10,429 nt of DNA from Candidatus Dadabacteria bacterium (GCA_040289575.1 PSLL01000052.1:1-10429), one strand, 5' to 3'. Positions 82 through 9,039 are shown, counted from the stretch's first letter. A program made the numbers and translations. Notes: a model not told the origin generated them from the sequence alone.

Positions 82-1083
82 ATGGTGAGGTATAAGAAGT
101 CCTTACTCAACGACAAAGTAATACTGCTAACAGGAGGAACCGGGTCTTTTGGAAGAGCGTTTACTAAAATTGTTCTCAACGAGTACGGTCCAAAGGCAAT
201 TCGGATATTTTCAAGGGGTGAATATCTTCAAATGCAAATGCGTCAGCAATTTGGTGATGACCCACGGCTCCGCTTTTTCATAGGTGATGTACGCGATAAA
301 GACAGGGTATATCGCGCTATGGAAGAAGTCGACATAGTAGTTCATGCAGCAGCTTTAAAGCAGGTTCCCGCATGTGAGTACAATCCAATCGAAGCTGTCA
401 AGACGAATATTGAAGGGACTGCAAACGTTATCGATGCAGCCCTTGACAACAATATAGAAAGAGCTATTTTTATCAGCTCAGACAAAGCAGTAAACCCTAT
501 AAATCTATATGGGGCGACTAAGCTTGTTGCTGAGAAAATTTTTGTACAAGCTAACGCTTATCGGGGAACAGGCTCAACCCGCTTTAGTTGCGCTCGGTAT
601 GGCAATGTTGTGGGAAGCAGAGGTAGCGTTATTCCCCTGTTTTTACAACAACGTAAGAATGGTAAAGTGACGGTAACTGATTCACGAATGACGCGCTTTT
701 GGATTACGTTGGAACAGGGAGTACGTTTCGTCATTTGGTGTATAGAGCATATGCACGGAGGTGAGGTTTTTGTGCCCAAAATTCCTAGTATGAACATCAT
801 GGACCTGGTGAAAGCGATAGCTCCTGATTGTGAAGTAGAGTTTGTTGGTATTCGCCCAGGAGAAAAATTACATGAAGTCCTAATTTCGGAGGATGAGTCC
901 CGTCATACCTTAGAATTGGACAATATGTTCATTATCCAAAGCGCTCATCCTTGGTGGAAAGTGGAAAACTGGTCTGATGCGAGGCCTGTTCCTGAAGGAT
1001 TTCGATATGCTAGCAATACCAACGATCGTTGGTTGACGATTGAGGAGCTACAGCAAATGGTGCAGGAATTGGAACTAGAGTGA
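82..1083 (+). CDS. pseB: UDP-N-acetylglucosamine 4,6-dehydratase (inverting), PseB
   Basis: 333-aa ORF with TGGTGSFG Rossmann motif, GDVRD, HAAALKQVP, SSDKAVNPINLYGATK (SDR YxxxK plus the D-K pair), RYGNVVGSRGSV, RMTRFWITL and GIRPGEKLHE. First gene of a Pse-type set. Exact start is uncertain because the SD is weak. Confidence 0.93.
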   Translation: MVRYKKSLLNDKVILLTGGTGSFGRAFTKIVLNEYGPKAIRIFSRGEYLQMQMRQQFGDDPRLRFFIGDVRDKDRVYRAMEEVDIVVHAAALKQVPACEYNPIEAVKTNIEGTANVIDAALDNNIERAIFISSDKAVNPINLYGATKLVAEKIFVQANAYRGTGSTRFSCARYGNVVGSRGSVIPLFLQQRKNGKVTVTDSRMTRFWITLEQGVRFVIWCIEHMHGGEVFVPKIPSMNIMDLVKAIAPDCEVEFVGIRPGEKLHEVLISEDESRHTLELDNMFIIQSAHPWWKVENWSDARPVPEGFRYASNTNDRWLTIEELQQMVQELELE

Positions 1084-1094: not shown

Positions 1095-2273
1095 TTGGAA
1101 ATGAAGGACAACGTTACTCAAAACAGGGTGATTCCTTATGGTCGTCAATGGGTAGATGAAGAAGATATCCAAGCTGTGATTGAAGTGTTGCGCTCAGATT
1201 GGTTGACAACGGGACCGAAGATAAGCGAGTTTGAGCAGGCCTGTGCTGAGGTAGTGGGGGCAACATATGCAATTGCCGTAAGCAGTGGCACAGCGGCACT
1301 GCATGCGGCAATTTGCGCCACTGGGGTCCAGCCCGGTGATGAAGTGATTGTCCCGGCGATGACCTTCGTGGCCACTGCCAATTGCGTAGTGTTCCAGGGC
1401 GGGACGCCGGTCTTTGTGGATGTCGACCCCGATACGCTTCTGATAGATCCTGAGCAGGTGAAGGCGAAGATCACCCCTCGCACGAAGGCAATAATTGCCG
1501 TGGACTATGCCGGGCAGCCCTGCGATTATGATGTGTTGCGGCAGATTGCCGATCAGTACGGGTTATTGCTGGTAGCGGATGCCTGTCATGCGCTGGGAGC
1601 AACATATAAGGGCCGCCCGGTGGGCTCCCTGGCTGATCTCACCACCTTTAGCTTTCATCCGGTAAAACATATCACGACCGGAGAAGGAGGGATGGTTACT
1701 ACGGACAACCCTGATTTTGCCGAGAGAATGCGCATATTTCGTAATCATGGTATTACTACCGATTATCACCAACGGGAGAAGCATGGAACCTGGTTTTATG
1801 AAATGGTTGACCTAGGATACAATTACCGCATCACAGACATCCAATGCGCTTTAGGCTTAAGTCAGCTCCGAAAACTAAAAGTGTGGGTGAAACGTCGGCA
1901 GGAAATAGCTCGGACATACGATGCTGCATTTTCGGAAATCCCAGAGGTCCGGCCGTTAATGGTTCGGTCGGACGTATCTCACGCTTACCATCTCTACGTG
2001 GTTCGATTTGATCTGCGACGATTGAAAGCAACAAGGGCGGAAATCTTCGCTGCTCTGCGCGCTGAAGGTATTGGCGTGAACGTCCATTACATCCCAGTGC
2101 ACCTCCATCCTTTCTATCGGCAAATGTTTGGAACTCGACTGGGTATGTGTCCTGTGGCGGAAGCGGCTTATGAGCAGATTATTAGCCTGCCGATATTCCC
2201 TCACATGTTGGACGATGATGTGAACAAGGTGATCGCTGCGGTAGTCAAAGTGATAAAAGTGTTTAGCACATGA
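1095..2273 (+). CDS. pseC: UDP-4-amino-4,6-dideoxy-N-acetyl-beta-L-altrosamine transaminase, PseC (DegT/DnrJ/EryC1/StrS family)
   Basis: IPYGRQWVDEEDI N-terminus, SSGTAALH, TFVATAN, DACHALGA, SFHPVKHITTGEGG (PLP lysine), LGYNYRITDIQCALG, VHYIPVH, ISLPIFP. Directly follows pseB. Start is TTG 1095 or ATG 1101. Confidence 0.92.
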   Translation: MEMKDNVTQNRVIPYGRQWVDEEDIQAVIEVLRSDWLTTGPKISEFEQACAEVVGATYAIAVSSGTAALHAAICATGVQPGDEVIVPAMTFVATANCVVFQGGTPVFVDVDPDTLLIDPEQVKAKITPRTKAIIAVDYAGQPCDYDVLRQIADQYGLLLVADACHALGATYKGRPVGSLADLTTFSFHPVKHITTGEGGMVTTDNPDFAERMRIFRNHGITTDYHQREKHGTWFYEMVDLGYNYRITDIQCALGLSQLRKLKVWVKRRQEIARTYDAAFSEIPEVRPLMVRSDVSHAYHLYVVRFDLRRLKATRAEIFAALRAEGIGVNVHYIPVHLHPFYRQMFGTRLGMCPVAEAAYEQIISLPIFPHMLDDDVNKVIAAVVKVIKVFST

Positions 2274-2305
2274 GGAGTTCAAGCGGTACAGCGGGAGGAG
2301 TAGAA

Positions 2306-2923
2306 ATGGGTGAGCAGCTGAAAATCTGGATGAGTGAATTCGGCAAATCCTGGACAGAGCGCAATTTAATAGATTGGCGTAAACGTCTCCCTGCCTTTAG
2401 GGACATGTTGAGATTATTACCTGTCAAGCGAGTGCTGGAAGTGGGATGCAATCGGGGTCATAACCTGATTGCCCTTGCCGAGCTTCTAGGCGAAGAGAGC
2501 GAGTTAGTGGGTGTTGAGCCCAATCGGTATGCGCTGGAGCTTGCTCGCGCCTCAAGCGTGAAGATAGGTGTCCTGTGGAGTCATGTGTTTGACCTGCCCT
2601 TCAGGGATGGTTATTTTGATCTAGTGTTTACTGCTGGAGTGCTGATCCATATCCCGTTGACGGATTTGCCTGCAGCTTTGGCGGAAATAGTCAGGGTTAG
2701 CAAGCGATATATTCTCGCTATAGAGTATTTTGCAGAAGAAGAAACGGCTATCCCCTATCGGGGATACGATAATCTGTTGTGGAAGCGGAACTTCCTGAAG
2801 CATTACCAGCGCCAGTTTCCAGAGCTATGTCTGGTTCGCAGCGGATACTGGGGACCTGAACATGGCTTTGACGGGACGCACTGGTGGCTCTTGGAAAAGC
2901 CTTTTGCTGGGGAACGGGAATGA
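2306..2923 (+). CDS. Pseudaminic acid biosynthesis-associated class I SAM-dependent methyltransferase
   Basis: WMSEFGKSWTERN N-terminus, VLEVGCNRGHNL (motif I), GVEPN, FDLVFTAGVLIHI, IEYF, YRG...LWKRNF, and a C-terminal WWLLEK match the Pse-associated methylase family as recalled. Start moved from 2270 to ATG 2306 because GGAGGAG lies at 2294-2300. Confidence 0.85.
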   Translation: MGEQLKIWMSEFGKSWTERNLIDWRKRLPAFRDMLRLLPVKRVLEVGCNRGHNLIALAELLGEESELVGVEPNRYALELARASSVKIGVLWSHVFDLPFRDGYFDLVFTAGVLIHIPLTDLPAALAEIVRVSKRYILAIEYFAEEETAIPYRGYDNLLWKRNFLKHYQRQFPELCLVRSGYWGPEHGFDGTHWWLLEKPFAGERE

Positions 2924-3216
2924 AGGTTGCGGCCATCATTGAGGGTCGTACGGGAAGCACCCAGTCGCCGAGAAAGCGAATGATAGCTCCGGCTGGCGAA
3001 CCCATGCTCGCAAGAGTAGTGGGTGAGTCGAGTTCGTTGGCCGCAAAAGGTGGCTCACGTTGTGGTTACCGCCACGGTCGACTCTAGGACCATGAGATTG
3101 TCAATTTTTGTTATGGGGAAATAATCACATTGCCCATCTTCCCACGCACGAGTGACGATGATGTTAGAAGTGTGATTGCTGCAGTGAGGCGCGTGGTGGA
3201 TCTACATCGAAGATGA
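2920..3216 (+). pseudogene. Chimeric pseudogene: decayed SpsF-type cytidylyltransferase N-terminus (2920-~3111) joined to a DegT/PseC-type aminotransferase C-terminus (~3112-3216)
   Basis: ATG 2920 overlaps the methylase stop and reads MKVAAIIEGRTGSTQSPRK..AGEPMLARVV. After a frameshift near 3020 it reads SRVRWPQKVAHVVVTATVDS. After a second shift near 3085 it reads DHEIVNFC, then YGEIITLPIFPRTSDDDVRSVIAAVRRVVDLHRR* (TGA 3214-3216). The parts align by eye to the N-terminus of the 4260 ORF and the C-terminus of PseC in this window. Confidence 0.85.
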
Positions 3217-4256
3217 AAACTGAAAATAGAAAAGGGTATCAAGGCATGGATACCGATGTAAATGGCTTTCTTGTCATAGGATGTGGTTCAATAGGCAAAC
3301 GGCATATAAGTAATTTGTTGAGCCTTAGCATAATGGATATTATTGTTTTTGATGTTCAGGCTTCGCGCCGTGAGGAAGCGAAAAAACGATTTGGTGTTAC
3401 TGCTGTGGAGACTCTTGAAGACGCATGGGTATACGAACCTGAGGTGGCAATTATTGCGGTGCCCAACAGTTTGCATATTCCCATAGCCTTGGAGGCTGCT
3501 GAGCACGGTTGTCATTTGTTTATCGAGAAGCCCCTTTCCCATACAATGGAAGGTGTCGACCGATTGTTAAGCTTGGTCGAGCGTAAGCGCCTGATTACCC
3601 TTGTTGGATGTAACATGCGCTTCCATCCGGCGATCAAACGCGTGAAGGAGTTATTAGATCAAGATGCAGTGGGGAAGGTGGTTGCCGCTCGCGTCGAGGT
3701 AGGGCAGTATTTGCCGGATTGGCATCCGTGGGAGGATTACCGGCAGATGTACAGCGCCCGACGTGACCTTGGAGGTGGAGTAATCCTGGACGCGATTCAC
3801 GAAATCGACTACATTGGCTGGCTGCTTGGTGAGGTGGAGGCTGTGGCTTGCTTTGCTGGGAAGCTCAGTTATCTCGAGATTGAGACGGAGGATACGGCGG
3901 GAATTCTCTTGCGTTTCACTAATGGAGCGATCGGAGAGGTCCATTTAGACTACGTACAGCGCGTATACAGTCGCACATGCCATATCATTGGCGATGAAGG
4001 AACCATCCGATGGGACTATTCATCCGGCGAGGTCCGTTGGTACTCGGCGGAGGCGGGCAAGTGGCAGATATTTACCAATCCCCCAGGTTGGGAGCCTAAT
4101 CAGATGTACTTAGACGAGATGCGACATTTCCTGCGATGCCTAACCGGCCAAGAGGAGCCAGTGTTGGACGTGTTTGAAGCGGCACGTGTGCTGGAAGTAG
4201 CGCTAGCTGCTAAGACGTCCTCTCAGACGGGCCAAGTGGTGAAACTTCGGAGGTAA
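3213..4256 (+). CDS. Gfo/Idh/MocA family NAD(P)-dependent oxidoreductase
   Basis: VIGCGSIGKRH Rossmann motif, HLFIEKPLS, VGCNMRFHP, GQYLPDWHP..DYR..YSA, GGGVILDAIHEIDY, ETED, VHLDY. Start is ATG 3213 (overlapping the pseudogene TGA) or ATG 3246. Confidence 0.9.
   Translation: MKTENRKGYQGMDTDVNGFLVIGCGSIGKRHISNLLSLSIMDIIVFDVQASRREEAKKRFGVTAVETLEDAWVYEPEVAIIAVPNSLHIPIALEAAEHGCHLFIEKPLSHTMEGVDRLLSLVERKRLITLVGCNMRFHPAIKRVKELLDQDAVGKVVAARVEVGQYLPDWHPWEDYRQMYSARRDLGGGVILDAIHEIDYIGWLLGEVEAVACFAGKLSYLEIETEDTAGILLRFTNGAIGEVHLDYVQRVYSRTCHIIGDEGTIRWDYSSGEVRWYSAEAGKWQIFTNPPGWEPNQMYLDEMRHFLRCLTGQEEPVLDVFEAARVLEVALAAKTSSQTGQVVKLRR
4249..4254 (+). promoter_or_regulatory. Shine-Dalgarno for the cytidylyltransferase-aminotransferase fusion
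   Basis: GGAGGT 5 nt upstream of ATG 4260, overlapping the end of the oxidoreductase gene. Confidence 0.75.
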
Positions 4257-4259
4257 AGC

Positions 4260-6326
4260 ATGGCGCGGAGGCCAAGGGTTGTTGCCATTGTACAGGCCCG
4301 TATGGGTTCCACGCGGCTTCCGGGCAAAGTGCTAGCTGAAATCGCCGGGCGCCCAATGCTCTGGTATGTGGTCGAACGAGTGCGCAGGGCCCGGACTGTG
4401 GACAAGGTCGTTGTAGCCACGACCGGCAACTCCGAAGATGATGCCATTGCTGCATTCTGTGCTGACAATTGCATCCAGTGTTTCCGGGGCAGCGAGATGG
4501 ATGTACTCGATCGGTTCTATCAGGCTGCCAAGCACTTCGGCGCAGATGTGGTGGTCCGGATCACAGGCGATTGTCCACTTATCGACCCGGAAGTTGTGGA
4601 TAAGGTGGTAGGCACGTATTTAGAAGGCGATTACGATTATGTGAGTAATACCCTGCGATATACATACCCCGATGGCTTGGATGTAGAGGTTTTCTCATTC
4701 GAGGCTTTGGAGCGGGCATGGAAGGAAGCACACTTGGCATCTCACAGGGAACATGTAACACCTTATATCCGTACCTCGGGAAAGTTCCGTGTTTTCAACG
4801 TAGAAAATGAGATAGACCTATCGAAAGAGAACTTACGATGGACCGTCGACGATCCCGCAGATCTCGAATTTGTAAGAGCTGTGTACTCTCGGCTTGGTAG
4901 AGGGCAGCGACCTTTTGGTCTTACAGATGTTCTCCAACTACTCAAGAGGGAGCCATATCTCATGGAAATCAACAAAAAAGCTATTCGCAATGAAGGCTAC
5001 TATCGGTCTTTGGTGAACGAGCTCCCTGTACCTCCAAGGAGTAAAGAGCTAAGGCGCTCTTACCTACTCAAAGAGAAGGCGGAACGGCTGATTCCCTCCT
5101 GCACCCAGACGTTCAGTAAAGGGCCTACACAGTTTGTCCAGGGAGTGGCACCGGTTTTCTTGGCACGTGCTCAGGGCAGTCATGTCTGGGATGTGGATGA
5201 GAACGAATACATTGATTACGCTATGGCTCTGGGGCCAATAATCCTAGGCTATAACTATCCGACTGTAACCGAGGCCGTAATGCGCCAAATGGAGAGTGGA
5301 ACGACATTTTCGTTGCCCCATCCACTGGAAGTGGAAGTGGCCGAACTGCTATGCGAGGTCATCCCTTGCGCTGAAATGGTGCGCTTCGGTAAGAACGGCT
5401 CCGATGCCACCTCAGGAGCAGTAAGAGTAGCGCGAGCTTATACAGGGCGTGACATAATTGCGTGCTGCGGCTACCATGGCTGGCAAGACTGGTACATCGG
5501 CACAACCACGCGCAATAGGGGAGTACCCGAAGCAGTGCGCCGTCTTACCATCCCATTTGAGTACAACAACATTGAGAGTTTAGAACGTATTTTCGCCGAG
5601 CATCCAGGCCAGGTGGCAGCAGTTATTATGGAACCAATTGGTGTTATGGGGCCTCAAGACAATTTCCTGCAAAAAGTACGAGCCTTGACGGAGCGAGAAG
5701 GCGCCTTGTTGATTTTCGATGAAGTGGTTACAGGCTTTCGATTAGCCTTAGGTGGAGCTCAGGAATATTTCGGGGTAATACCTGACTTGGCCTGTTTCGG
5801 TAAGGCCATGGCAAATGGCTATCCTTTGGCTGCCATTGTAGGGCGCCGCGAAATTATGGAGCTTTTTGACGAAGTGTTCTTCTCATTCACCTTTGGTGGG
5901 GAGACGCTTTCGTTGGCGGCTGCGAAGGCGACCATTACAGAGATGCAGCGAAAGAACGTTGTTGGTCACCTGTGGGAGCAAGGGATGAAACTGAAGGACG
6001 GTTACAATACACTTGCCCGCGAGTTCGGTGTGGAACGTTACACGGAGTGCATAGGCATACCTCCACGCACGGTGGTCGTCTTCAGGGGCGAGGAGGGCAA
6101 GGAGTCCGTGGTCCTAAAAAGCCTTTTCCAGCAAGAATGCCTCAAAAGAGGTGTGTTATTTACCGGTAGTCACAATGTTTGCTACAGCCATAGCGACGCA
6201 GACGTTGAGTACACCCTGCGGGTTTATCGAACAGCCTTAGAAGTACTTGCGGACGCCATTAAAGCGGGAGAGGTAGAGCAGAGACTTGAAGGAGAACCCG
6301 TACAACCGGTATTTCGTAGACCGTAA
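4260..6326 (+). CDS. Fusion of a SpsF-type (acylneuraminate-like) cytidylyltransferase and a class-III PLP aminotransferase (glutamate-1-semialdehyde aminomutase-like fold)
   Basis: N-terminal ~245 aa carry AIVQARMGSTRLPGKVL, FRGSEMDVLDRF, VRITGDCPLIDP, YPDGLDVEVF, REHVTPYI and RWTVDDPADL. C-terminal ~425 aa carry WDVDENEYID, RFGKNGSDA, GYHGWQDW, AAVIMEP, LIFDEVVTGFR, CFGKAMANGYP (PLP Lys) and SFTFGGE. One uninterrupted 688-aa frame. Confidence 0.9.
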   Translation: MARRPRVVAIVQARMGSTRLPGKVLAEIAGRPMLWYVVERVRRARTVDKVVVATTGNSEDDAIAAFCADNCIQCFRGSEMDVLDRFYQAAKHFGADVVVRITGDCPLIDPEVVDKVVGTYLEGDYDYVSNTLRYTYPDGLDVEVFSFEALERAWKEAHLASHREHVTPYIRTSGKFRVFNVENEIDLSKENLRWTVDDPADLEFVRAVYSRLGRGQRPFGLTDVLQLLKREPYLMEINKKAIRNEGYYRSLVNELPVPPRSKELRRSYLLKEKAERLIPSCTQTFSKGPTQFVQGVAPVFLARAQGSHVWDVDENEYIDYAMALGPIILGYNYPTVTEAVMRQMESGTTFSLPHPLEVEVAELLCEVIPCAEMVRFGKNGSDATSGAVRVARAYTGRDIIACCGYHGWQDWYIGTTTRNRGVPEAVRRLTIPFEYNNIESLERIFAEHPGQVAAVIMEPIGVMGPQDNFLQKVRALTEREGALLIFDEVVTGFRLALGGAQEYFGVIPDLACFGKAMANGYPLAAIVGRREIMELFDEVFFSFTFGGETLSLAAAKATITEMQRKNVVGHLWEQGMKLKDGYNTLAREFGVERYTECIGIPPRTVVVFRGEEGKESVVLKSLFQQECLKRGVLFTGSHNVCYSHSDADVEYTLRVYRTALEVLADAIKAGEVEQRLEGEPVQPVFRRP

Positions 6327-6333
6327 GGCCGAG

Positions 6334-7842
6334 ATGGACGGGAAGGAATTCCTTATCATCCGTGTCGATGCTGGGACGCGTCTTGGCACCGGCCATTTGA
6401 TGCGTTGCTTGGCCCTGTCCCAGGCCTGGAAGGACCGTGGAGGACAGACGATCTTCGTTACGGCATGTGAAAGCAAGACTTTACAACAGCGGCTATTAGA
6501 TGAAGGGTTCGAAGTTGCGCTGTTGAAGCATGCGTATCCTGACCGACGCGATTGGGAACATACCTCGCGGGTGCTGGCGCGACATCCGGGGGCATGGGTG
6601 GTGCTGGATGGCTACCATTTTGATTCCGATTACCAGCGCCGTATCAAGGAAGCAGGGCATCGGCTACTGGACGATATGGCTCATCTGCCCCATTATTATG
6701 CCGACATAGTACTTAATCAAAATTTACATGCTGGCGAATTGCATTATTCTTGTGAACCCTATACCAGGCTTCTGCTTGGCACCAAGTATGTGCTTTTGCG
6801 CCGGGAGTTTTTGGATTGGCGGGGGTGGAAGCGGGAGATACCCAAAATGGCCCGCAAGGTTTTGGTAACACTGGGTGGTAGTGACCCTGAAAATGTAACC
6901 CTCAAGGTAATCCAGGCTCTGCAATTGGCGGATGTGGATGGGCTGGAGGCGGTAGTTGTAGTTGGTGGGAGTAATCCACATTATGAACAATTGGTGTATG
7001 CTATTCGGGAATGCCGCTTCCCCATCCGGCTTGAGATAAATGCAACGGACATGCCCGAGCTTATGGCATGGGCAGATGTGGCTATCGCTTGTGGGGGAAC
7101 TACGGCTTGGGAACTTTCTTTCATGGGCTTACCAGGTATTATTTTGGTTCTTTCAGGGAACCAGCAGAGTGTTGCCGAGCAACTAAGCATGATGGGGATA
7201 GATATCAATGCGGGTTGGCATCGGGATCTTCACCCAGCTGAGATAGCACAAGCAATCATAAGGTTACTGATGTCGCCACAGATGCGCATGGACATGGCGG
7301 AACGCGGGCAGCGGTTAGTGGACGGAGAAGGAGTCGAAAGAGCTTTGATGTGTATAAAGGGTGAAAAACTCAGGTTAAGGCGAGCGTGCGAGGATGATTG
7401 TAAGCTACTTTGGGAGTGGGCTAATGACCCACAAGTAAGAGCAGCGTCATTCTCGTCAGATCCGATACCTTGGGAAGAACATGTACAATGGTTTAGGAGA
7501 AAAATGAATGATCCTTCATGCTTTTTTTTCATTGCGCTGGATGATCAAGATATTCCAGTAGGACAAGTACGCTTTGACATGCACAAAGAGCATGAAGCAG
7601 AGATTAGTGTAAGTATAGATCGAAAGAAGCGCGGATTGGGGTACGGCCCCCTTTTGATCAGTAAAGCGGTAGAAGAATTATTTCGCACGACATCGATAAG
7701 AACCATCCATGCGTTTATCAAGCAACGTAATGAAAACTCCATTAGGGCTTTTGAAAAAGCTCATTTTGAGAGGTTAGGTATTGAGACTGTCAAAGGGAAT
7801 TTGGCTATACACTATGTGCGGAGGAGAAATAATGAGCGATGA
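6334..7842 (+). CDS. pseG: Bifunctional PseG (UDP-2,4-diacetamido-2,4,6-trideoxy-altropyranose hydrolase) / PseH-like GNAT N-acetyltransferase fusion
   Basis: IRVDAGTRLGTGHLMRCLAL (catalytic His motif), VLDGY, LLGTKYVLLRREF, VTLGGSDP, MPELMAWADVAI..GGTTAWE and VDGEGVER. From ~7369 a GNAT domain reads LLWEWANDPQVRAASFSSDPIPWEEHVQWF..VGQVRFD..RGLGYG..NENSIRAFEKAHF. ATG 6334 is preferred over TTG 6286, which overlaps the upstream gene by 41 nt. Confidence 0.88.
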   Translation: MDGKEFLIIRVDAGTRLGTGHLMRCLALSQAWKDRGGQTIFVTACESKTLQQRLLDEGFEVALLKHAYPDRRDWEHTSRVLARHPGAWVVLDGYHFDSDYQRRIKEAGHRLLDDMAHLPHYYADIVLNQNLHAGELHYSCEPYTRLLLGTKYVLLRREFLDWRGWKREIPKMARKVLVTLGGSDPENVTLKVIQALQLADVDGLEAVVVVGGSNPHYEQLVYAIRECRFPIRLEINATDMPELMAWADVAIACGGTTAWELSFMGLPGIILVLSGNQQSVAEQLSMMGIDINAGWHRDLHPAEIAQAIIRLLMSPQMRMDMAERGQRLVDGEGVERALMCIKGEKLRLRRACEDDCKLLWEWANDPQVRAASFSSDPIPWEEHVQWFRRKMNDPSCFFFIALDDQDIPVGQVRFDMHKEHEAEISVSIDRKKRGLGYGPLLISKAVEELFRTTSIRTIHAFIKQRNENSIRAFEKAHFERLGIETVKGNLAIHYVRRRNNER

Positions 7843-7965: not shown

Positions 7966-9039
7966 ATGAGTGGTTATATAGAAATTGGAAATCGGCGCAT
8001 CGGGCCAGGCGAGCCGGTTTACATTGTCGCCGAGATGTCAGCCAATCACAATCAGGATTTTGATCAGGCAGTCCGCATCCTGCACGCTGCCAAGGAAGCA
8101 GGTGCAGATGCTGTCAAGCTCCAGACCTATACTCCTGATACTCTTACTATACGCTCCGACAAAGAATTCTTCCGCATCAGCGGAGGCACTCCCTGGGATG
8201 GAAAAACCCTTTACGAGCTCTACAGCGAAGCATATATGCCCTGGGATTGGCAACCCAAACTGAAAAAAATTGCGGATGAAATAGGGATTGATCTTTTCTC
8301 CACGGCCTTTGACCCTACAGCAGTTGATTTCCTCGAAGAGATGGGGGTACCCGTCCATAAAGTAGCTTCTTTCGAGATCGTGGACATCCCTTTAATTGAA
8401 AAGATGGTTCGTACAGGTAAGCCATTGATCATCTCCGTAGGCATGGCGACGTTAGGAGAGATAGAAGAGGCAGTCCAGGCTGCTCGGAATGCGGGAGCAA
8501 CGCAGATAGCTTTACTCAAATGTACTAGCGCGTATCCTGCCCCACCCGAAGAGATGAACCTGCGGACCATCCCCCACCTGGCGGAGGCGTTCGGCGTGCC
8601 GTTGGGGCTCTCCGACCATACCCTCGGTATCGCTGTGCCCGTCGCGGCTGTGGCGTTGGGCGCCTGCATCGTGGAGAAACACTTCACCCTTTCTCGTGAT
8701 ATTCCCGGACCCGACAGCGCCTTTTCGCTGGAACCTCACGAATTCAAGGCGATGGTAGAAGCCATTCGCACGGTGGAGAAGGCACTGGGCAAGGTGCACT
8801 ATGGCGTAAGTGAGCAGGAAGCCAAAAGCCGTGTGTTCCGGCGCTCGCTGTTTGTGGTGAAGGATATGAGAGCGGGAGAAGTCTTCACCGAACAGAACGT
8901 GCGTTCCATCCGCCCTGGATATGGTCTGCCCCCCAAGTTTTTGAAAGACGTACTGGGTCGACGGGCAACACGTGATGTGAAGGCCGGCACACCATTGACA
9001 TGGGAACTAATTTGTGTGATAGATAACCGCCATGATTAA
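7966..9039 (+). CDS. pseI: Pseudaminic acid synthase PseI (NeuB family with C-terminal SAF domain)
   Basis: IVAEMSANHNQ, GADAVKLQTYTPDTLT, LYELYSEAYMPWDW, KVASFEIVD, LLKCTSAYP (K as in PseI, where many NeuB have H), GLSDHTLG, EKHFTL, GPDSAFSLEP, FRRSL and RSIRPGYGLPP. Confidence 0.93.
   Translation: MSGYIEIGNRRIGPGEPVYIVAEMSANHNQDFDQAVRILHAAKEAGADAVKLQTYTPDTLTIRSDKEFFRISGGTPWDGKTLYELYSEAYMPWDWQPKLKKIADEIGIDLFSTAFDPTAVDFLEEMGVPVHKVASFEIVDIPLIEKMVRTGKPLIISVGMATLGEIEEAVQAARNAGATQIALLKCTSAYPAPPEEMNLRTIPHLAEAFGVPLGLSDHTLGIAVPVAAVALGACIVEKHFTLSRDIPGPDSAFSLEPHEFKAMVEAIRTVEKALGKVHYGVSEQEAKSRVFRRSLFVVKDMRAGEVFTEQNVRSIRPGYGLPPKFLKDVLGRRATRDVKAGTPLTWELICVIDNRHD

Follow-up and report, generated by a model that had tools for sequence, protein, structure and literature searches.

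A conserved oxidoreductase–cytidylyltransferase–aminotransferase trio as a candidate route to amino-pseudaminic acid in a Dadabacteria operon

Known tailoring systems and the Dadabacteria locus

The genome of Candidatus Dadabacteria bacterium GCA_040289575.1 (3.06 Mb, 126 contigs, 95% complete) contains an operon for the nonulosonic acid pseudaminic acid (Pse) that also encodes an NAD(P)-dependent Gfo/Idh/MocA oxidoreductase, a class-III pyridoxal phosphate (PLP) aminotransferase fused to a cytidylyltransferase, and an S-adenosylmethionine (SAM)-dependent methylase. The operon lies on the complete contig C27 (PSLL01000052.1:1-10429), a stretch of 10,429 bp that was analysed in full and is called the window below. 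The oxidoreductase, the class-III aminotransferase and the methylase had been named as surplus activities in an initial annotation, which proposed a route to an extra-aminated, possibly methylated Pse derivative, and each was recovered here as a long plus-strand open reading frame (ORF) with strong family matches.

Cytidylyltransferase-linked redox tailoring at C8 is represented by one experimental and one proposed case, each relying on two redox enzymes. The experimental case, from Acinetobacter baumannii prophages, comprises EpaA, a fusion of a CTP_transf_3 domain with an aldo-keto reductase (AKR), and the short-chain dehydrogenase/reductase (SDR) EpaB, which convert Pse5Ac7Ac to 8-epi-Pse as established by complementation and nuclear magnetic resonance (PMC12053666). 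In the proposed case, from A. baumannii KL49, ElaB makes the cytidine monophosphate (CMP)-activated legionaminic acid (Leg) derivative CMP-Leg5,7Ac2. Knock-outs, crystal structures and docking led to the proposal that the Gfo/Idh/MocA enzyme ElaA (nearest solved structure 3EZY) oxidises the C8 hydroxyl of this sugar, and the SDR ElaC reduces the 8-keto intermediate to the 8-epimer (PMC13656337).

The window resembles both systems in part. Like ElaABC, it pairs a cytidylyltransferase with a Gfo/Idh/MocA oxidoreductase that would tailor a 5,7-diacetamido nonulosonate, and ElaA and the window's oxidoreductase share 3EZY as nearest structure when compared by published description. Unlike ElaABC, in which the second step is described as carried out by an SDR and yields an epimer, the window encodes a class-III aminotransferase fused to the cytidylyltransferase. 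ElaB is described as PseF/LegF-like, whereas the window's domain is SpsF-like, and no ORF for an ElaC-like SDR (a second NAD(P)H enzyme) was found in the window, where all eight large ORFs fall into other families. Like EpaA/EpaB, which act on pseudaminic acid at C8, the window has a CTP_transf_3 domain fused to a tailoring enzyme and a partner oxidoreductase; in the published account, however, the fused partner is an AKR, EpaB is an SDR and no PLP enzyme is described. Two candidate correspondences were rejected. ElaB was considered as the class-III aminotransferase and proved to be the CTP-transferase, with ElaA and ElaC as the NAD(P)H enzymes (PMC13656337); the entry 8w9s ('NADH-dependent dihydrogenase') was dropped as the ElaA structure, its length being plausible but its sequence composition unlike that of an Acinetobacter protein. 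When phages were searched by tblastn with the window's cytidylyltransferase domain, nothing stronger came up than weak matches to kdsB-annotated records of Acinetobacter phages, 32% identical over 41% of the query.

Conversion of a hydroxyl of an activated sugar to an amine by a Gfo/Idh/MocA dehydrogenase and an aminotransferase is known from WbpB/WbpE (WlbA/WlbC), GnnA/GnnB and NtdC/NtdA. Unlike the predicted pair in the window, these enzymes act at C3 of UDP-hexoses or glucose-6-phosphate and use DegT-type aminotransferases. The KdnB/KdnA pair of Shewanella oxidises and then aminates C8 of a 2-keto-3-deoxy acid sugar to form 8-amino-Kdo (8-amino-3-deoxy-D-manno-octulosonic acid); it differs from the window in belonging to other enzyme families, in converting a primary alcohol to an aldehyde and in acting before CMP activation. 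ElaA is a closer precedent than KdnA/KdnB.

The existence of 8-amino-Kdo is documented in a review (PMC3210612), which also bears out the 8-amino nonulosonate mentioned in the initial annotation. The O-polysaccharide of Flexibacter (Tenacibaculum) maritimus contains 5-acetamido-7-(3-hydroxybutyramido)-8-amino-3,5,7,8,9-pentadeoxynonulosonic acid of the manno type, with a free 8-amino group (PMC3210612), and such a free group fits an operon with one N-acetyltransferase. In the available text of the T. maritimum O-antigen paper and two of its supplement files, pseB is named, with no mention of a class-III aminotransferase, a cytidylyltransferase or neuB, and 'locus 2' is described only as having an epimerase/dehydratase and an aminotransferase along with an oxidoreductase and an acetyltransferase (PMC9796276).

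Related gene sets have also been described in other organisms. The group I flagellin islands of Aeromonas have the order pseB-pseC-[aldo/keto reductase]-pseF-[class III aminotransferase]-pseG-pseI, with no function proposed for the extra genes; subgroup IA, which includes A. hydrophila AH-1, has those two extra genes only (PMC7874193). This order matches that of the AKR-type loci L008, L039, L043 and L044 of the survey below, whereas the Aeromonas genes, unlike those of the window, are described as unfused and their glycan as attached to flagellin through Maf. AH-1 flagellin carries a Pse derivative of 403 Da (PMC4691044). By the nitrogen rule an odd nominal mass requires an odd number of nitrogens, and the Pse5Ac7Ac residue (316 Da) holds two, so the 403-Da mass agrees with a third nitrogen, though it is not proof of its place. 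In the O-antigen cluster of Legionella pneumophila serogroup 6/12, genes for a PseG-like protein, a 'glutamate-1-semialdehyde aminomutase' and a cytidylyltransferase are adjacent, and an aryl-alcohol dehydrogenase gene lies five genes further (PMC3694923).

The oxidoreductase, cytidylyltransferase and aminotransferase trio

ORF mapping and family profile scans placed eight large ORFs, separated by short gaps or overlaps, in a single plus-strand operon with the order PseB, PseC, methylase, Gfo/Idh/MocA oxidoreductase, cytidylyltransferase::class-III aminotransferase, PseG::GNAT, PseI and Wzx-like flippase (Table 1). The fusion gene (4260-6326) encodes a 688-aa protein in which the CTP_transf_3 domain is followed by Aminotran_3, with PRK06209 matching residues 262-687.

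The cytidylyltransferase domain scored only 32.7 bits on the PseF equivalog TIGR03584, over residues 8-58, against a cut-off of 205.7. Its best solved relative was 6oew ('cytidylyltransferase', 151 bits), and the Aeromonas PseF structure 6ifd was absent from its 17 PDB matches (E<=0.001). The motifs 'ARmGStRLPGK' and 'GDcP' are kept in the alignment with 6oew. By these comparisons the domain is SpsF/KdsB-like and not PseF-type. Close homologues of the fusion carry the JGI name 'SpsF', and we take SpsF to be of the same type as the window's domain. In the CMP-Leg pathway as proposed, SpsF itself, a putative cytidylyltransferase, comes last; the mutant still makes Leg, with no transfer to the spore surface (PMC7439481). 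The fusion was the only strong CTP_transf_3 match in the genome (140.8 bits, the next being 35.3), and no strong KdsB-like cytidylyltransferase was found there.

The aminotransferase domain aligns over its full length with glutamate-1-semialdehyde (GSA) aminomutase structures, which are its top structural matches (226 bits), and it keeps the PLP 'GK' lysine and the 'FDEV' motif when compared with 2cfb and 4e77. On the HemL equivalog TIGR00713 it reached 284-286 bits against a cut-off of 527.3, and the true hemL of the genome was located elsewhere, at C25:83716-84978 (minus strand, 631.7 bits); judged by these scores, the fused aminotransferase is not the HemL of the cell. The domain scored 467.6 bits on PRK06209, with a cut-off of 486. 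Its best solved relatives that are not GSA aminomutases were the aminopentol aminotransferase FumI (6hbs, 180 bits) and the gentamicin C-6' aminotransferase GenB (7lld, 167 bits), together with 7lm0. FumI handles an amine next to a terminal methyl group, and GenB works on C6', an exocyclic sugar carbon, once a dehydrogenase has acted; unlike the window's domain, both act on unrelated substrates and have no nucleotidyltransferase fusion. A second GSA-aminomutase-like paralogue stands alone at C90:6282-7562 (minus strand, 316.5 bits, 452-aa frame).

The oxidoreductase combines an N-terminal Rossmann domain with an alpha/beta domain at its C-terminus, scoring 68.3 bits on PF01408, 70.5 on PF02894 and 83 on PF22725. 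Its best PDB match was 3ezy, followed by the WlbA structures 3q2k and 3q2i, and its segments 'fiEKPl' and 'aiHeiD' align to the same motifs (EKP and HxxD) in all three. In Gfo/Idh/MocA enzymes the EKP lysine and the downstream His/Asp are catalytic.

Conservation of the trio was assessed by a protein search with the fusion, which returned more than 8000 scored relatives, and by a genome scan limited to one genome per species, which yielded at least 599 candidate stretches, at least 544 of them encoding relatives. Among the matches listed, many relatives were 70-80% identical to the fusion and came from Thermodesulfobacteriota, Dehalococcoidia, Syntrophales and Bathyarchaeota; two of the listed proteins, P0082 and P0112 (1031-1032 aa), also carry Gfo/Idh/MocA domains and are thus triple fusions. 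The best 80 stretches were kept as loci, and their ORFs were labelled by blastp with the window proteins and with Pfam-identified proteins. Thirteen loci were excluded (two without a complete aminotransferase ORF, 11 with less than 3.5 kb on one side), which left 67.

The aminotransferase was fused to a cytidylyltransferase in 59 of the 67 loci, and a cytidylyltransferase lay within 3.5 kb in 64. A Gfo/Idh/MocA gene was present within the same distance in 50 loci, 16 of them single-ORF triple fusions, and in another 10 its place was taken by an AKR, confirmed as such by Pfam. The two kinds of redox partner were mutually exclusive, with no locus (0/67) holding both. PseB and PseC were each found in 59 loci and PseG in 58; 62 loci encoded a nonulosonate synthase, which in 45 was at least 55% identical to the PseI of the window. 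The co-occurrence of oxidoreductase and class-III domain that the initial annotation put forward as a check was thereby observed in most of these loci. The commonest order was PseB-PseC-oxidoreductase-fusion-PseG(GNAT)-PseI, and the minimal conserved operon contained nothing beyond the Pse genes and the trio. A separate PseF appeared neither in eight full gene maps nor among the genes labelled in the 80 loci. The fusions, triple fusions and synteny support the view that the trio is a single functional unit conserved in Pse operons.

The surveyed loci also differ among themselves. Of the synthases less than 55% identical to the window's PseI, 14 were scanned (L005, L006, L009, L014-L018, L021, L027, L030, L048, L053 and L068), and all of them scored higher on the NeuB than on the PseI model while remaining below both cut-offs; in L006 such a synthase lies beside true PseB and PseC equivalogs; judged by these profile scores, the 14 may be a distinct synthase subtype. 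In L001, L002, L006, L014 and L015, inserted genes for B12-binding radical-SAM enzymes and FemAB-like Acetyltransf_6 proteins separate pseC from the oxidoreductase or follow the fusion. Other related loci carry N-formyltransferases, PIG-L deacetylases, WbqC, a TylF-like methyltransferase and an asparagine-synthase-like amidotransferase. The tailoring repertoire of related Pse operons is large and unstudied. Two Desulfobacterota loci have a 130-aa PD-(D/E)XK nuclease-family (PDDEXK_3) gene between the fusion and pseG (L002:12114-12506 and L003:12113-12505).

Predicted amination of the nonulosonate and competing explanations

In the pathway that we infer, down to its substrate, position, order relative to CMP activation and amino donor, PseB, PseC, the GNAT domain (as PseH), PseG and PseI would make pseudaminic acid by the usual route, and the SpsF-type domain would activate the sugar with CMP. 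The Gfo/Idh/MocA enzyme would oxidise a free secondary hydroxyl of the sugar or CMP-sugar to a ketone, most likely that at C8, and the fused class-III aminotransferase would turn the ketone into an amine. The predicted product is CMP-5,7-diacetamido-8-amino-3,5,7,8,9-pentadeoxy-nonulosonate, or 8-amino-8-deoxy-Pse. One redox enzyme combined with one PLP aminotransferase is the pattern expected for converting a hydroxyl to an amino group. The two hydroxyls left free on CMP-Pse5Ac7Ac are those at C4 and C8. C8 is favoured because its oxidation would give an exocyclic methyl ketone next to C9H3; moreover, the non-aminomutase relatives 6hbs, 7lld and 7lm0, which presumably act at an amine adjacent to a terminal methyl or at an exocyclic sugar carbon, point to C8 over C4, as do the ElaA precedent and the natural 8-amino sugar. 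C8 thus appears more likely than C4 as the amination site. Amination of the nonulosonate by the trio, with C8 as the favoured position, was given roughly an even chance.

The sugar would enter a Wzx-dependent glycan and not flagellin. A profile search of the 95%-complete genome found no flagellin N-domain and no Maf/MptE-like transferase, and a Wzx-like flippase follows in the operon, so a lipid-linked glycan or polysaccharide is the likelier destination. The organism may be without flagella and classical lipopolysaccharide.

The initial annotation knew of no characterised enzymes for such a route, and literature searches, with most subscription journals outside their scope, likewise yielded no enzymology for it. 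Several observations weigh against amination of the nonulosonate. The same searches yielded no biochemical or genetic test of these genes. In 10 loci the partner is an AKR, and AKRs usually act as reductases. Seven of the 67 loci have no redox partner within 3.5 kb, three of which (L022, L027 and L048) show a more distant or weaker oxidoreductase match. The minimal operon, including that of the window, has one N-acyltransferase only; unless genes elsewhere deal with it, the new amine would remain free. The likeness between the Aeromonas islands and the window rests on the available published gene descriptions and not on confirmed orthology, and 403 Da is a nominal mass in which the third nitrogen could come from an acetamidino or aminoacyl group.

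The aminotransferase clade, furthermore, is not confined to nonulosonate loci. A stand-alone, 57.6%-identical copy on a Haloprofundus salinisoli plasmid (L091, 8641-17136) is surrounded by ABC transporters, a DegT aminotransferase, a GH28-related protein, two Gfo/Idh/MocA oxidoreductases, an amidohydrolase and RidA, and by its gene content this looks like a catabolic amino-sugar locus. A 44.5%-identical copy on pNGR234b of Sinorhizobium fredii NGR234 (L090, 3847-14487) lies in a polysaccharide locus without Pse genes, among a pyruvyl transferase, a flippase and an Acyl_transf_3 protein, with an integrase and an IS91-type transposase adjoining. The structure of the polysaccharide from the rkp-3 Pse region of NGR234 is reportedly known; assignment of the NGR234 homologue to that region was rejected, as it is located in the different polysaccharide locus just described, and it says nothing either way. 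What remains of the initial interpretation is the trio as a conserved unit, the retained PLP lysine and the existence of an 8-amino sugar, while its methylation step is weak and the clade also occurs outside nonulosonate loci.

These occurrences without Pse genes also bear on an alternative in which the trio acts off the nonulosonate backbone, making or activating a side group with an amino function, or some other small molecule, CMP/CDP-linked, for later attachment to the glycan. A cytidylyltransferase domain that is not PseF-type would suit such a role, as would the wealth of acyl-tailoring genes in related operons (formyltransferase, PIG-L deacetylase, FemAB-like GNAT, B12-radical SAM). Pse nevertheless needs CMP activation, for which the fusion is the only strong cytidylyltransferase in the genome, and the minimal conserved operon is limited to the Pse genes and the trio. 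SpsF, which we take to be of the same type, is moreover placed last in the proposed CMP-Leg pathway. A role off the backbone is considered unlikely, though it survives best among the four alternatives weighed here.

The resemblance of the aminotransferase domain to GSA aminomutases, its best matches at 226 bits, raises the possibility that no nitrogen is added and that the redox and PLP enzymes isomerise or epimerise Pse or shift an amino group. The class-III fold also includes epimerases and racemases (a GenB2-type 6'-epimerase and isoleucine 2-epimerase), and epimerisation at C8 is an established way of tailoring CMP-nonulosonates. The known epimerisation systems, however, have two redox enzymes and no PLP enzyme, both amines of Pse5Ac7Ac are acylated and leave no free amine for a mutase, and the odd-mass Aeromonas glycan would stay unexplained. 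Isomerisation is accordingly rated somewhat below a side-group role and is itself unlikely.

Amination could also follow the same oxidise-then-aminate chemistry at the C4 hydroxyl of the nonulosonate or CMP-nonulosonate to give a 4-amino derivative. This is the only other free hydroxyl on CMP-Pse5Ac7Ac, and the comparative locus data do not tell the two positions apart. Amination of ring ketones in sugars is usually the work of DegT-type enzymes, whereas the class-III relatives act at exocyclic or terminal positions; the ElaA precedent concerns C8, and we know of no 4-amino nonulosonate. Modification at C4 is judged improbable, slightly more so than isomerisation.

Operation of the module in reverse, with the aminotransferase deaminating to a ketone and a reductase then forming a hydroxyl to leave a less aminated nonulosonate, would match the normal reduction of carbonyls by AKRs and the close stand-alone homologue in a catabolic-looking locus with RidA, but is very improbable, as it requires a free amine, PIG-L deacetylases being present in some loci only and none in the window, and the operon spends an enzyme, PseC, on adding the very amine that would be removed. 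Together the four alternatives take up most of the probability left by amination at the favoured position, and a small remainder is kept for anything else.

A broader version of the amination pathway was also considered. The trio with its SpsF-type enzyme, or the AKR version of it, could constitute a pathway to 5,7,8-triamino nonulosonic acids in hundreds of lineages, bacterial (mostly uncultured) and in some cases archaeal, and would then explain both the T. maritimum O-antigen sugar and the 403-Da glycan of AH-1. This generalisation is tentative and is held at somewhat less than even confidence.

Other operon features and implications

The features of the window are collected in Table 1.

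Table 1 Features identified in the window, with positions counted from its first base.
Feature	Position	Strand	Evidence
PseB, UDP-GlcNAc 4,6-dehydratase (inverting)	82..1083	+	TIGR03589 497.8 bits vs cut-off 407.75; PF02719
PseC, DegT-type aminotransferase	1095..2273	+	TIGR03588 497.1 bits vs cut-off 423.5
SAM-dependent methylase, Pse-associated family	2270..2923	+	TIGR03587 139.2 bits vs cut-off 112.05; Methyltransf_25/11
Apparent recombination/deletion scar	2920..3213	+	ORFs 2884-3087 and 3130-3216; weak PRK13368 match; blastx
Gfo/Idh/MocA NAD(P) oxidoreductase	3213..4256	+	PF01408, PF02894, PF22725 above cut-off; 3ezy E 5.9e-22
SpsF-type CTP_transf_3 cytidylyltransferase domain of fusion	4260..5039	+	PF02348 137.7 bits, residues 8-205
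Class-III (GSA-aminomutase-like) PLP aminotransferase domain of fusion	5040..6326	+	PF00202 178.5 bits, residues 297-588
PseG (UDP-sugar hydrolase) fused to GNAT, probable PseH	6286..7842	+	TIGR03590 224.6 bits vs cut-off 153.55
PseI, pseudaminic acid synthase	7966..9039	+	TIGR03586 493.9 bits vs cut-off 340.25
Wzx-like polysaccharide flippase, ORF runs off contig end	9032..10429	+	PF01943, PF13440

The statement in the initial annotation that all six canonical Pse steps are covered held at equivalog level for four of them, as the PseB, PseC, PseG and PseI equivalogs all scored above their NCBIfam cut-offs. The two others lacked equivalog-level matches: the cytidylyltransferase fails the PseF model, and the GNAT domain of PseG::GNAT reached 59.6-62.8 bits on the PseH model TIGR03585, with a cut-off of 93.1. 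The pseI gene was the only full NeuB-family gene detected in the genome. A short NeuB-like match (40.3 bits, model positions 78-239) lies in a 181-aa open frame at C70:57767-58291, possibly a fragment or a protein with another domain.

The methylase gene begins further upstream than first annotated: its ORF opens at 2270 and overlaps the pseC stop, and the methionine at 2306 is internal. The proposal of a methylated product is weak. A methylase of the Pse-associated family TIGR03587, scoring above the family cut-off, is indeed present inside the operon, but homologues of it or of a second methyltransferase type were found in 9/67 related loci only. Among all 80 loci a methyltransferase occurred in 12, and in 9 of those 12 it was the labelled gene next to the trio. 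These counts lend weak support to a link between methylase and trio, and one may speculate that the methylase methylates the product, for example by N-methylation of the new amine.

Methylase and oxidoreductase are separated by 290 bases, a feature missed by the initial annotation, that resemble parts of a second copy of two genes: about 40 codons from the 5' end of another cytidylyltransferase::aminotransferase gene, followed by about 45 codons from the 3' end of another pseC, with stops within. The ORF in the first part is similar to a cytidylyltransferase N-terminus (weak PRK13368 match, E 0.0021), and the region of the last ORF resembles a DegT-type C-terminus. A blastx comparison of positions 2900-3230 with the ORFs of the related loci, its E-values referring to a small database, gave a best match to a PseC C-terminus at E 5e-7, the window's own PseC at E 2e-5 and fusion N-termini at E 7e-5 to 9e-5. 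In related loci pseC stands directly before the oxidoreductase, and in some a methyltransferase stands directly before the fusion. From the two halves and this gene order, the segment looks like a junction left by recombination of two Pse-type clusters or by deletion of the stretch between them, and it suggests an earlier arrangement in which the methylase of the window immediately preceded a fusion gene.

Nonulosonic acids are found on flagella, capsules, S-layers and lipopolysaccharides, where they influence how immune systems and phages recognise bacteria. If the amination pathway proposed here is correct, such a sugar would gain a third amino group, possibly a free one, that alters its charge and makes it a zwitterionic, sialic-acid-like molecule. 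The trio would then provide the first enzymes for triamino nonulosonates and tools for the chemoenzymatic synthesis of amino-Pse probes. It would also give a function to the very common annotation 'glutamate-1-semialdehyde aminomutase/SpsF' (more than 8000 scored relatives and at least 544 genome stretches).

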